This document shows positions 8,759 to 42,184 of a stretch of 64,000 bases of DNA, one piece after another. How positions within the stretch are numbered: position 1 is the stretch's first letter; each line of letters opens with the position of its first letter. The notes under the pieces were generated by a model. It saw only the letters and a program-made list of their open reading frames with translations, did no database searches and was not told the origin of the DNA. The translations under genes and the position numbers were made by a program. The DNA lies in the sequence record OZ035782.1; one strand, 5' to 3'. The DNA is from Felixounavirus LF110P2.

Positions 8759-10111
8759 ATGTGGAATCCAATTGTTAATGTAGATATTACATTGAACACC
8801 GCAGGAACTACAAGAGAAGGTTTTGGTTTGCCACTATTCTTAGCTTCAACAGATAATTTTGAAGAAAGAGTACGTGGTTACACTTCCTTAACTGAAGTTG
8901 CTGAAGATTTCGATGAGAATACTGCTGCATATAAGGCTGCTAAACAACTTTGGAGTCAGACTCCTAAAGTAACTCAGCTTTATATTGGTAGACGTGCTAT
9001 GCAGTACACTGTATCAATTCCTAATGCCGTTGCTGAAAGTACAGACTACTCAATTACTGTAGCTGCTGGCGGTGGAATTTCTCAACCATATCAGTATACA
9101 GCACAAGCTGAAGACACTGCTGAAAACGTGTTGCAACAGTTTAAAACACAGATTGAAGCTGACCCAACAATCAAAGATAAGGTTTCTGTGAACGTAACTG
9201 GTAGCAATGGCTCTGCCACAATGATTATTACCAAAGCTGGTGATAATGACTTTGTGAAAGTAACAACTACAGCACAGACTGTGTATATTGCAAGTACAAC
9301 TGCCGATACAGCATCAACTGCTCTGGCAGCTATCGAAGCTTACTCTACTGACTGGTATTTCATTGCAGCAGAAGACAGAACTCAACAGTTTGTCTTAGCA
9401 ATGGCTTCTGAGATTCAGGCTCGCAAGAAAATCTTCTTTACAGCTAACTCCGATGTAACAGCCCTGCAAGGTACAGAATTAGCCAGTGCAAATGATGTTC
9501 CAGCACAGCTTGCTAAGAATATGTACACTCATACAGTTTGCTTGTGGCATCACGCAGCGGCAGAAGACTATCCAGAGATGGCATACATTGCTTATGGTGC
9601 TCCATATGATGCAGGTTCAATTGCTTGGGGTAATGCTCAGCTAACTGGTGTAGCAGCTTCTCTACAACCATCTAATCAGAGACCTCTGACAAGTATTCAG
9701 AAGTCTGCTTTAGATGTACGTCACTGTAACTTTATTGACCTTGATGGTGGTGTTCCAGTGGTTCGTAGAGGGATTACTTCTGGTGGGGAATGGATTGATA
9801 TCGTCCGTGGCGTTGACTGGTTAGAATCAGACCTGAAAACTTCTCTGAGAGACTTGCTAATTAATCAGAAGGGTGGTAAGATTACTTATGATGATACTGG
9901 TATTACCCGTATTCGTCAAGTCATTGAAACCTCTCTGCAAAGAGCAGTCAACAGAAACTTCCTGTCATCTTACACAGTTAATGTTCCTAAAGCCTCTCAA
10001 GTTGCTTTGGCAGACAAGAAAGCTCGTATCCTGAAAGATGTTACCTTCGCAGGTATCTTAGCAGGGGCTATCTTGGATGTTGACTTGAAAGGTACAGTGG
10101 CTTACGAATAA
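8759..10111 (+). CDS. Tail sheath protein
   Basis: 450 aa ORF followed directly by a 148 aa ORF (tube) and a strong terminator, the canonical sheath-tube pair of contractile tails. Confidence 0.5.
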   Translation: MWNPIVNVDITLNTAGTTREGFGLPLFLASTDNFEERVRGYTSLTEVAEDFDENTAAYKAAKQLWSQTPKVTQLYIGRRAMQYTVSIPNAVAESTDYSITVAAGGGISQPYQYTAQAEDTAENVLQQFKTQIEADPTIKDKVSVNVTGSNGSATMIITKAGDNDFVKVTTTAQTVYIASTTADTASTALAAIEAYSTDWYFIAAEDRTQQFVLAMASEIQARKKIFFTANSDVTALQGTELASANDVPAQLAKNMYTHTVCLWHHAAAEDYPEMAYIAYGAPYDAGSIAWGNAQLTGVAASLQPSNQRPLTSIQKSALDVRHCNFIDLDGGVPVVRRGITSGGEWIDIVRGVDWLESDLKTSLRDLLINQKGGKITYDDTGITRIRQVIETSLQRAVNRNFLSSYTVNVPKASQVALADKKARILKDVTFAGILAGAILDVDLKGTVAYE

Positions 10112-10126
10112 TAGAGGTAAATTGGA

Positions 10127-10573
10127 ATGGCTATGTATCAGCAATATTCCCCTAAAGACGTTGTATGTAGCTGGAATGGTATTGCCATTGAAGGCTTTGC
10201 CCCAGATTCATTCTTGCGTCTACAGAGAACATCACCACTTGTGACACCAGTTGTTGGTGCAGGTGGTCAGGTTGCTCTGACAAGAAATGCAGACAAGACA
10301 GGTACTATTGAGATTGAGTTAATGCAGACTTCTCTCTCTAACCAGATGCTCTCTGCAATTCAAGCTAAACAAGACAATATGGAACTTGAAGAAGATATCT
10401 CTTCTAACTTCGTAATCTACGACCCATCAGGCTCTGTTCTGGCAACTGGTATTAATGCTTGGTTGCAGGAATTACCACAGATTGAACTTGGTCGTGACCA
10501 GAACTCTAAAACTTGGATTTTTGGTTGTGAGAAGCTAGACTACACTTCTACAATTCCAGCGTCAAGTGTTTAA
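10127..10573 (+). CDS. Tail tube protein
   Basis: 148 aa ORF after sheath; followed by intrinsic terminator. Confidence 0.5.
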   Translation: MAMYQQYSPKDVVCSWNGIAIEGFAPDSFLRLQRTSPLVTPVVGAGGQVALTRNADKTGTIEIELMQTSLSNQMLSAIQAKQDNMELEEDISSNFVIYDPSGSVLATGINAWLQELPQIELGRDQNSKTWIFGCEKLDYTSTIPASSV

Positions 10574-10585
10574 TAAATCCTATAA

Positions 10586-10617
10586 GGGGGAGACTTTAAA
10601 AGGTCTTCCCCTTTTTT
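10586..10617 (+). terminator. Rho-independent terminator after sheath/tube genes
   Basis: GGGGGAGAC ... GTCTTCCCC inverted repeat followed by TTTTTT. Confidence 0.6.
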
Positions 10618-10646
10618 GTTTCTTTTAAAAGTATTAAGGAATCACA

Positions 10647-11045
10647 ATGAAAACAGAATCTAGAGTAATTAATGGCAAGAAAGTAAATATCGTTCTGCTT
10701 GGGGCAAGAGATGGTATTAAGATGTCTATGAAGTTGGGTAAAATTGTTGTTCCAACTTTTGCACAGATGCTGTCAAGTCTGACTGACAAGGGTAAGAAAG
10801 AAGCTCCAATGGTTCCATTTAAAGAACTTGTTGAAGCTTGTTTTGACAGAATTGAAGAAATTAACCTTGAAGAGATGGCTACCTTATTATTTCAAGGGGC
10901 AACTGTTGACGACTTCCCACTTAATATTGATACGTACTTCCAAGCAAACTACGGTGAATTTATTGATTACTTAGCATTTGCGCTGGAGGCAAACTTCGGA
11001 AGTTTTTTCGAAGCAAGCATTTTCAAAAGCCTAACTTCTCAGTAA
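10647..11045 (+). CDS. Tail assembly chaperone (G-like)
   Basis: Small ORF immediately upstream of tape measure gene; ends just after a T_TTT_TTC slippery heptamer. Confidence 0.5.
   Translation: MKTESRVINGKKVNIVLLGARDGIKMSMKLGKIVVPTFAQMLSSLTDKGKKEAPMVPFKELVEACFDRIEEINLEEMATLLFQGATVDDFPLNIDTYFQANYGEFIDYLAFALEANFGSFFEASIFKSLTSQ
11003..11009 (+). other. Candidate -1 programmed ribosomal frameshift site (T_TTT_TTC) of the tail chaperone pair
   Basis: Heptamer TTTTTTC lies in X_XXY_YYZ register of ORF 10647..11045 (codons AGT TTT TTC); the -1 frame from 11009 is open and in frame with ORF 11048..11287. Confidence 0.5.
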
Positions 11046-11047
11046 AC

Positions 11048-11286
11048 ATGGGTAACACTCTACAGACACCACTAACTGATGCTGCTGTAGAGGCAACCTA
11101 TGAAGAAGCAGACGAGATGAAATTTGTGCTTGCTATTTATGGTATGGAAGGGTGTAAAGAAACACTTGACCAACTCTTTGCTATGACATTCTCTGATTTA
11201 TTATCATTGAGACAATTTCTTGAAATTCAGAGGTCGTATAAAGAGGAAATTGCTTACAACGAACTTAGAAGAGCAGGAAAAATGTA

Positions 11287-11287
<1 letters not shown>
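11048..11287 (+). CDS. Tail assembly chaperone frameshift extension (GT-like) or small independent ORF
   Basis: 79 aa ORF in -1 frame relative to upstream chaperone, contiguous with it, directly before tape measure gene. Confidence 0.4.
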
Positions 11288-19303
<8,016 letters not shown>

Positions 19304-41149: not shown

Positions 41150-41880
41150 AAAACTGGAACCTTCGTTGTGGAAACACTCAAAAGCAACCTTACAGTGATG
41201 AGTATTGGGAATCTTTAAAATCTCAATCTCTGTGTATGCTTGAAGAAGCAAAAGAGCTTGTAAAAGCAATTGAAGAGAAAGACCCCATTGAGACACTGGA
41301 TGCTCAGGCAGATTTGCAATATGTTCTTGACGGTTTGATTTACCTGTCACAACATGACCATAACGGTGCTATGAAAGCTGTTTGCCGTAATAATGACCTG
41401 AAGTACACAGATGACTATGAAGAAGCTTTAAAACGTCTTGCAGACATTGAAAAGCGTACTGGTCAAGAGTGTATTATCAGAATGTCAGTAGTTGATGGTA
41501 AAGAGTGGTATGCGATTGTTCGTACAGCCGATGGGAAGATTATGAAGCAATCAAATCTCCCTAAAGTACAGCTTGGTGAATACATTGTAGAGCTTGAAAG
41601 CCAAGAACTTTTTGTGGTAGTATCTGAGACATGCGTTATCTGCAAAGGTATTGTAGGTAGCTTAAAGGATTTGGGTGTAGATGGTTTTGTAGAAGTTAAT
41701 CCAATTACCTCTAAAGCAGATAAAGACTTCTGTAAAGAGAACGGACTATGGATTGCAGATATTGTCTACTATGATGGTGAGCAGTTCCATGTAACCTCAT
41801 ACCCGAAACTGAATTATGATGCTAATAACCTGAAGTGCTGGTTAAAAGGGGTTGGTTATAATGGATTCACAGAACATTAA
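41125..41880 (+). CDS. Hypothetical protein with possible MazG-like NTP pyrophosphohydrolase N-terminal domain
   Basis: LEEAKELVKAIEEK...LDAQADLQYVLDGL resembles the EExxE...D MazG-type helical motif; weak. Confidence 0.25.
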   Translation: MFNSRESVKNWNLRCGNTQKQPYSDEYWESLKSQSLCMLEEAKELVKAIEEKDPIETLDAQADLQYVLDGLIYLSQHDHNGAMKAVCRNNDLKYTDDYEEALKRLADIEKRTGQECIIRMSVVDGKEWYAIVRTADGKIMKQSNLPKVQLGEYIVELESQELFVVVSETCVICKGIVGSLKDLGVDGFVEVNPITSKADKDFCKENGLWIADIVYYDGEQFHVTSYPKLNYDANNLKCWLKGVGYNGFTEH

Positions 41881-42184
41881 TAAAGAGGGTGTGGCTCAAA
41901 AGAGCCACTTCTCAAACTACAATATTTCTATGACGGTGTTTATGAATGACCCGTTACTAGAAAAATATGGTGAGACTCCAGATACACTTCTGGACAATGA
42001 ACAAGTTTTAAAAGCAGTCCTATACAAATACGGGATTGATATTGAGAAAGAATATTCCTTTGAAATCTGCCAACACAGGAATACTTTCGGTAAAGTTGTG
42101 ATGGCTCCACTCTTTATGGGTGTAGAAAGGACTGACTATGGTTGGTTGTATCTAAAAAGAAACTTGGAGAAATACCGTGTCTAA
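41852..42184 (+). CDS. Hypothetical protein
   Basis: 110 aa ORF. Confidence 0.25.
   Translation: MVIMDSQNINKEGVAQKSHFSNYNISMTVFMNDPLLEKYGETPDTLLDNEQVLKAVLYKYGIDIEKEYSFEICQHRNTFGKVVMAPLFMGVERTDYGWLYLKRNLEKYRV

Follow-up and report, generated by a model that had tools for sequence, protein, structure and literature searches.

A conserved slippery heptamer predicts a -1 frameshift fusion of the tail assembly chaperone in Felixounavirus LF110P2

The tail assembly chaperone gene of Felixounavirus LF110P2, a Felix O1-like myophage with a contractile tail, carries close to its 3' end an in-register slippery heptamer, T_TTT_TTC, at positions 11003-11009 of the window, by which we mean the whole stretch of 64,000 nucleotides that was analysed. 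We propose, with a probability of about 0.9, that a 213-aa fusion protein is made by -1 ribosomal slippage at this heptamer. The comparative and evolutionary signature that would be expected if the -1 frame is translated from the heptamer onward is present in the sequences of this phage and its relatives. The site shows every feature of the conserved tail-assembly frameshift class (Xu, Hendrix and Duda 2004) that can be examined in silico. The features of the locus are as follows.

8759-10111 (+): tail sheath gene, matching phrog_205 and Pfam DUF3383
10127-10573 (+): tail tube gene, matching Pfam KPP10_Orf10
10636-10640 (+): Shine-Dalgarno sequence AAGGA of the chaperone gene, with an anti-Shine-Dalgarno duplex of -6.1 kcal/mol, which is typical (the median for genes in the window is -6.4)
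10647-11045 (+): short tail assembly chaperone gene, ORF1 (G-like, TAC-N), 132 aa, from Pfam and PHROG matches
10985-10989 (+): internal Shine-Dalgarno-like GGAGG, candidate stimulator 13 nt 5' of the heptamer, from duplex energy, spacing and lineage distribution
11003-11009 (+): slippery heptamer T_TTT_TTC, from its checked register and its conservation
11009-11287 (+): predicted -1 frame extension (T-like, TAC-C part), 92 codons and a TAA stop, from the open frame and its conservation; translation RSKHFQKPNFSVN...
11048-11050 (+): ATG, given in many records as the start of a separate 79-aa ORF; it has no Shine-Dalgarno sequence, is weak and is dispensable in relatives
11285-11289 (+): TAATG, in which the stop of the -1 extension overlaps the tape measure start, read from the sequence
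11287-13515 (+): gene of the 742-aa tape measure protein, which is the chaperones' client, matching Pfam TMP_3 (E = 7.8e-17) and phrog_4036 (E = 0)

The approximately 4.9 kb surrounding the site is 100% identical to Felixounavirus LF110P2 OZ035766.1 and shares 97-99% identity with some 190 Felix O1-like phages of Escherichia, Salmonella and Shigella. ORF1 is a member of the Phage_TAC_15 family of tail assembly chaperones because residues 9-124 of its 132 match Pfam PF21822 with a score of 71 bits, which is above the gathering cut-off of 22 (E = 1.7e-19). It also matches phrog_1613, tail assembly chaperone (E = 2.9e-48), and phrog_3840, which carries the same description, and a comparison of the ORF1 sequence with solved structures gave no match. 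The 79-aa ORF at 11048-11287 has no Pfam match and matches phrog_4963, 'tail assembly chaperone', with E = 2.8e-55. Two other observations were made on this region and on the window. Between the tube and chaperone genes, at 10584-10623 (+), there is a strong hairpin that resembles an intrinsic terminator, with a 13-bp stem (AAGGGGGAGACTT-TAAA-AGGTCTTCCCCTT) followed by a T run, and its homologous site in phage Michonne carries a terminator annotation; owing to this hairpin, the chaperone and tape measure genes may be transcribed less than those of the sheath and tube. ARAGORN detected zero tRNA genes within the 64-kb window and about 22 are reported for Felix O1-like phages (PMC5543628), so the tRNA cluster must sit in the other 23 kb of the 87-kb genome.

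The codons of ORF1 start at positions divisible by 3, and this places the heptamer in the X_XXY_YYZ register: T11003 is the wobble base of AGT (Ser119), TTT at 11004-11006 is Phe120, and TTC at 11007-11009 is Phe121. Eleven sense codons (EASIFKSLTSQ) follow the heptamer and the twelfth codon is the ORF1 stop, TAA at 11043-11045. The -1 frame stays open between 10967 and its TAA at 11285-11287 and is the frame of the 79-aa ORF. Thus, the two frames overlap by 79 nt, 10967-11045, with the heptamer inside the overlap, and the final A of the -1 frame stop also begins the tape measure ATG (11287-11289). The initial annotation had placed an in-register T_TTT_TTC at these coordinates, 12 codons before the stop of the upstream ORF, had the -1 frame open from the slip site in the frame of the 79-aa ORF, and had that ORF ending at the tape measure start, and all of this was confirmed. 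It had also predicted a fusion of about 210 aa, and the computed value agrees: a slip at the heptamer would join 121 residues to 92, giving a protein of 213 aa and 24.2 kDa beside the 132-aa short product of 14.8 kDa. The predicted junction is ...ANFGSFF/RSKHFQKPNFSVNMGNTLQ... and among the predicted fusion peptides are the tryptic peptide PNFSVNMGNTLQTPLTDAAVEATYEEADEMK, which begins upstream of the Met at 11048, and the GluC junction peptide ANFGSFFRSKHFQKPNFSVNMGNTLQTPLTDAAVE.

Conservation of the heptamer and of the -1 frame was examined in two sets of relatives. One is made up of 11 GenBank loci, namely, those of Felix O1, Mushroom, Michonne, phiSUSP1, Yersinia P778, Hafnia SarahDanielle, Hafnia SPARTY, Erwinia phiEa21-4, Alteromonas PT11-V22, Pectobacterium phiTE, and E. 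coli FV3. The other is made up of 58 distinct IMG/VR loci that were gathered by four protein scans, three of which were queried with distant relatives. T_TTT_TTY was found in register in 58 of the 58 IMG/VR loci and in 11 of the 11 GenBank loci, spelled T_TTT_TTC throughout except in the Alteromonas lineage, where it is T_TTT_TTT (seven T). In all of these loci the -1 frame continues for 91-126 codons after the heptamer. The loci with the heptamer cover Ounavirinae, Vequintavirinae and Myoalterovirus, with protein identity down to 26%. The -1 frame ends at, or a few bases from, the tape measure start in Ounavirinae and in the Alteromonas lineage, and the TAATG overlap itself recurs in Felixounavirus, Mooglevirus, Suspvirus, Yersinia and Alteromonas loci; in rV5- and phiTE-like loci the frame ends about 45-65 nt short of the next ATG. 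When nine protein sequences were aligned (identity down to 26%), only eight columns were invariant and two of these are Phe120 and Phe121. The residue preceding the two phenylalanines differs by lineage, being Ser (AGT), Cys (TGT) or Asp (GAT), and the wobble base is T in all of them. In the Erwinia phages, whose protein is 40% identical, the sole stretch that can be aligned at the DNA level is 10992-11032, which is the heptamer with its flanks, and it is 92.7% identical. The claim in the initial annotation that this is the conserved G/GT arrangement is supported, with one qualification. The position between the tube and tape measure genes, the in-register site in the overlap, and the conservation down to 26% identity all bear it out, but the tail of this phage is contractile and for this reason the closest named analogue is E/E+E' of P2 rather than G/GT of lambda.

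A heptamer of this kind in such a position is more than would be expected from the rest of the window. In-register X_XXY_YYZ heptamers number 69 across the 80 ORFs that reach at least 100 aa (20,630 codons), and the one at 11003 alone has a -1 frame that is 50 codons or longer and passes the 0-frame stop. The + strand ORFs of at least 100 aa encode 20 Phe-Phe dipeptides, and T_TTT_TTY is used to spell one only at the 11003 site. Sixteen of the 20 dipeptides start with TTC, whereas TTT accounts for 60% of Phe codons. These codon counts indicate that the slippery spelling of Phe-Phe is avoided elsewhere and kept at 11003, and the bias suggests genome-wide selection against accidental slippage on U runs.

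If two frames are translated from the heptamer onward, synonymous changes in ORF1 should become rare from that point. Synonymous variation was scored as the fraction of same-amino-acid codon pairs that differ synonymously, in pairwise comparisons of 37 distinct Ounavirinae ORF1 sequences. It stands at 24% over codons 1-107 and at 20% over codons 108-118, and then falls to 2.4% over codons 119-128, a roughly tenfold drop located exactly at the heptamer. Codons 108-118 are informative because there the -1 frame is already open, yet they lie upstream of the slip and their variation is still 20%. Thus, the constraint begins at the heptamer and not where the -1 frame opens, which is what two translated frames from the heptamer predict. 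In addition, the peptide RSKHFQKP, which would be encoded right after the slip and lies upstream of any start codon, is kept in the Suspvirus, Hafnia and Erwinia phages, has one substitution in Mooglevirus and is more diverged in the Yersinia phage.

The 79-aa ORF could instead be an independent gene that is translated only from the ATG at 11048, for example by termination-reinitiation, in which case no fusion is made and the heptamer is a mere Phe-Phe. Most GenBank records, including the RefSeq entry of Felix O1, show separate chaperone genes, PHROG 4963 was built on the 79-aa ORF, and the ATG lies 2 nt past the ORF1 TAA, a geometry that permits reinitiation. This ATG, however, has no Shine-Dalgarno sequence: its anti-Shine-Dalgarno duplex, at +0.6 kcal/mol, is the weakest when set against all 59 + strand ORFs of at least 100 aa and is weaker than that of about 87% of ATG triplets in the window. 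It is also dispensable. In L017 (IMG/VR UViG_3300045988_004167, an 87-kb Felixounavirus contig; L017:1856-1929) the ATG is replaced by ATA and the extension is otherwise identical, and in Mooglevirus the ATG is shifted downstream by four or five codons and has a Shine-Dalgarno-like sequence. In Kolesnikvirus, Alteromonas and phiTE-like phages there is no ATG, GTG or TTG in at least the first 45 codons of the extension, and since no start codon is present there, frameshifting would be the sole route to the extension in these phages. Two independent genes also leave unexplained the tenfold suppression of synonymous change in ORF1 codons 119-128, the conserved RSKHFQKP upstream of the ATG, and the universal in-register heptamer. 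The outcome that the initial annotation had set against frameshifting, namely, that the downstream ORF is translated only from its own ATG, is therefore contradicted by the synonymous drop, by RSKHFQKP and by the weakness and dispensability of the ATG. It is very improbable that two independent genes account for the locus, and the ATG at 11048 is probably not the main route by which the extension is expressed.

Slippage of RNA polymerase, which would add one U in the U6 run and let normal translation produce the same 213-aa fusion, is harder to distinguish from ribosomal slippage because the protein product (SFFR...) is identical, and for that reason the comparative data cannot separate the two routes. 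Six consecutive T form the run, which reaches seven in the Alteromonas lineage, and a weak hairpin precedes it in LF110P2; nascent hairpins can enable slippage on short runs (PMC5009743). On the other hand, efficient slippage in bacteria has been reported at about nine A or T and was undetectable at T5C5 without a strong adjacent hairpin (PMC5009743). The hairpin upstream of the run is weak (-6.5 kcal/mol, z = -1.0), and no consensus for it was found across 12 lineages. Moreover, the X_XXY_YYZ codon register is conserved in every locus, and this counts against the polymerase because the register matters to ribosomes and not to polymerase. We give transcriptional slippage a slim chance of a few percent. 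A ribosomal slip could also occur mainly at the tetramer T_TTC in ATT TTC (Ile125-Phe126), five codons downstream, with the junction ...SFFEASIF/QKPNF... In E. coli, U_UU.Y ranks with the best motifs for slippage of a single tRNA (PMC4066793), the Ounavirinae all keep ATTTTC unchanged, and the -1 frame is open at that point. Tetramers, however, are weaker than heptamers by about 10-fold and depend on a strong stimulator (PMC4066793), the -1 frame residues RSKH between the two sites are kept across genera, the synonymous suppression starts at codon 119 and not at codon 125, and only the heptamer is common to the Vequintavirinae. A main slip at the tetramer is the least probable of these explanations and would be quite surprising. 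Slippage of the ribosome at the heptamer is thus the reading that we prefer.

The initial annotation had suggested a search by RNA folding for a downstream stimulatory hairpin or pseudoknot, and no significant or conserved structure emerged from single-sequence folds, consensus folds and Rfam. Four windows folded around the site gave z scores of +0.85, +0.71, -1.64, and -0.21, none of which is significant. Consensus folds of 6 and 8 Ounavirinae sequences gave either no pairs or a structure of -1.4 kcal/mol without covariation, and an Rfam scan of 10500-11500 gave only sub-threshold chance matches. Thus, neither the z scores nor the consensus folds nor Rfam revealed a canonical 3' hairpin 5-9 nt after the heptamer. 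A perfect 8-bp inverted repeat within the T part, at 11057-11090 (+) (CTCTACAG ... CTGTAGAG, with an 18-nt loop), was considered as a stimulator and rejected; its distance of 47 nt from the heptamer is too great, and the repeat is not kept in Mooglevirus, Suspvirus or Kolesnikvirus. The heptamer U_UUU_UUC is itself frameshift-prone in E. coli and falls among the efficient heptamer classes H_HH.U_UU.Y; in an E. coli reporter its frameshifting was 0.12% when no stimulator was present, 0.89% in combination with the IS911 stimulator, and 7.6% when the IS3 pseudoknot was used (PMC4066793). For lambda a ratio of roughly 1:30 is reported (PMC5009743). That no 3' structure emerged matters because the 0.12% of the unstimulated heptamer is far under this ratio.

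A candidate for the stimulator lies on the 5' side. The internal GGAGG at 10985-10989 pairs with the anti-Shine-Dalgarno sequence at -9.3 kcal/mol, a stronger duplex than 90% of the true Shine-Dalgarno sequences of genes in the window form. It is found at equal spacing in Felixounavirus, Mooglevirus, Suspvirus and rV5-like phages, the related AAGGAG or GAGGTG occurs in some other lineages, and the GGAGG element is absent from the Erwinia/Kolesnikvirus, Hafnia and Yersinia relatives. Only eight internal GGAGG sequences are present in 49.7 kb of coding sequence, and the chance of this one given Leu-Glu-Ala and the codon usage is about 9%. In dnaX of E. coli, Larsen and co-workers reportedly showed in 1994 that a Shine-Dalgarno sequence at a spacing of the 13-nt type stimulates -1 shifts. 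The likeness to dnaX is that an X_XXY_YYZ heptamer is preceded at 10-14 nt by a Shine-Dalgarno-like sequence, the element here being GGAGG at 13 nt. The difference is that dnaX has a strong 3' hairpin and the heptamer A_AAA_AAG, whereas in LF110P2 no 3' structure emerged and the Shine-Dalgarno-like element is not in all lineages. By this analogy, GGAGG is a plausible lineage-specific candidate stimulator. A wider proposal would be that in the lineages of E. coli, Salmonella and Citrobacter the frameshift rate is determined by pairing of GGAGG with the anti-Shine-Dalgarno sequence of 16S rRNA, in the manner of dnaX but without a 3' structure, that the Erwinia, Hafnia and Yersinia phages use another stimulator, possibly in the 20-nt invariant stretch CGAAGCAAGCATTTTCAAAA, and that Felixounaviruses might add a third product, a free 79-aa T domain made by reinitiation at the ATG at 11048. 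We regard this as speculative and, as a whole, unlikely to be correct.

The mechanism that we propose is as follows. Translation of the gene at 10647-11045 would yield the short 132-aa tail assembly chaperone. A minority of ribosomes, with tRNA-Phe in both the P and A sites, would slip back 1 nt on U_UUU_UUC, and both tRNA-Phe would re-pair on UUU; the slip itself and its rate are what we infer. Decoding would resume at CGA 11009 in the -1 frame and stop at TAA 11285-11287, giving the 213-aa fusion of the 121 N-terminal chaperone residues with a 92-residue C-terminal extension. Pairing of GGAGG with 16S rRNA, as in dnaX, could possibly boost the event. If the analogy with lambda gpG/gpGT and P2 gpE/gpE+E' holds, the tape measure protein, which is encoded directly downstream, would become coated by the N-terminal part that the two products share. 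The tail tube protein would be brought in by the rare extension, and polymerisation around the tape measure would follow, first of the tube and then of the sheath. Neither chaperone product would be expected in the virion. Our literature searches turned up no experiment in which the fusion protein was detected in a phage of this group.

Frameshifting in tail assembly genes has well-known precedents. The P2 pair gpE/gpE+E' is said to have been described by Christie and co-workers in 2002 as a myophage chaperone pair that lies between the tube and tape measure genes and is made by a -1 slip. The P2 heptamer is also T-rich, TTTTTTG, and the chaperone protein family of P2 differs from that of LF110P2. 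In lambda the slippery sequence is G_GGA_AAG, unlike the one described here, no sequence similarity to lambda was detected, and the tail of LF110P2 is contractile. The likeness to lambda gpG/gpGT is in the two overlapping ORFs between the tail tube and tape measure genes (PMC5009743). The tail-assembly frameshift is conserved in long-tailed phages (Levin 1993; Xu, Hendrix and Duda 2004; reviewed in PMC5009743).

Closer relatives have been annotated already. Salmonella phage Mushroom (Felixounavirus, NC_041923), whose ORF1 is 98.5% identical, has the same TTTTTTC and -1 frame and is annotated with a joined two-piece CDS of the identical 641-nt span. The Citrobacter phages Michonne, Moogle and Mijalis (Mooglevirus) have an orthologous ORF1 that is 73-75% identical, with the same TTTTTTC heptamer, -1 frame and span, and the joined CDS of Michonne is annotated 'ribosomal slippage (47149)', a position that maps inside the heptamer. 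LF110P2 shows no substantive difference from Mushroom and the Mooglevirus phages, apart from the ATG position and the Shine-Dalgarno-like sequence of Mooglevirus. A tail chaperone frameshift is mentioned in the genome papers of Moogle and Mijalis (PMC4319497, PMC5543628). The paper on the Pseudomonas phage Adele, of December 2025, describes in Vandenendeviridae a conserved GTTTTT at the 3' end of the short chaperone gene with an uninterrupted -1 frame, reports the motif also in 231 Andersonviridae, and proposes -1 PRF for TAC-N/TAC-NC (PMC12846349). Because Andersonviridae contains Ounavirinae, LF110P2 belongs to that family. Whereas the motif given there is GTTTTT, we find a full in-register T_TTT_TTY, and we find it also in Vequintavirinae and Myoalterovirus; the suppression of synonymous change and the loss of the start codon are added here. 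The frameshift site is thus already annotated and published for close relatives and in this sense it is ordinary, and the finding raises no new question.

Annotation within the genus is uneven. Most records list two genes, as in NC_005282 (Felix O1), 41241-41881, MN850619 (finno) and OR863361, a joined frameshift CDS is given in few records (Mushroom, Michonne), and PHROG 4963 is a 79-residue profile made from the truncated ORF. The value of our results for annotation is that, on the comparative evidence, the 79-aa ORF would be the C-terminal part of a 213-aa frameshift product and not a separate gene. Kept on a single Phe-Phe motif in Ounavirinae, Vequintavirinae and Myoalterovirus alike, this heptamer would be a recoding signal that has stayed frozen over a long evolutionary distance.
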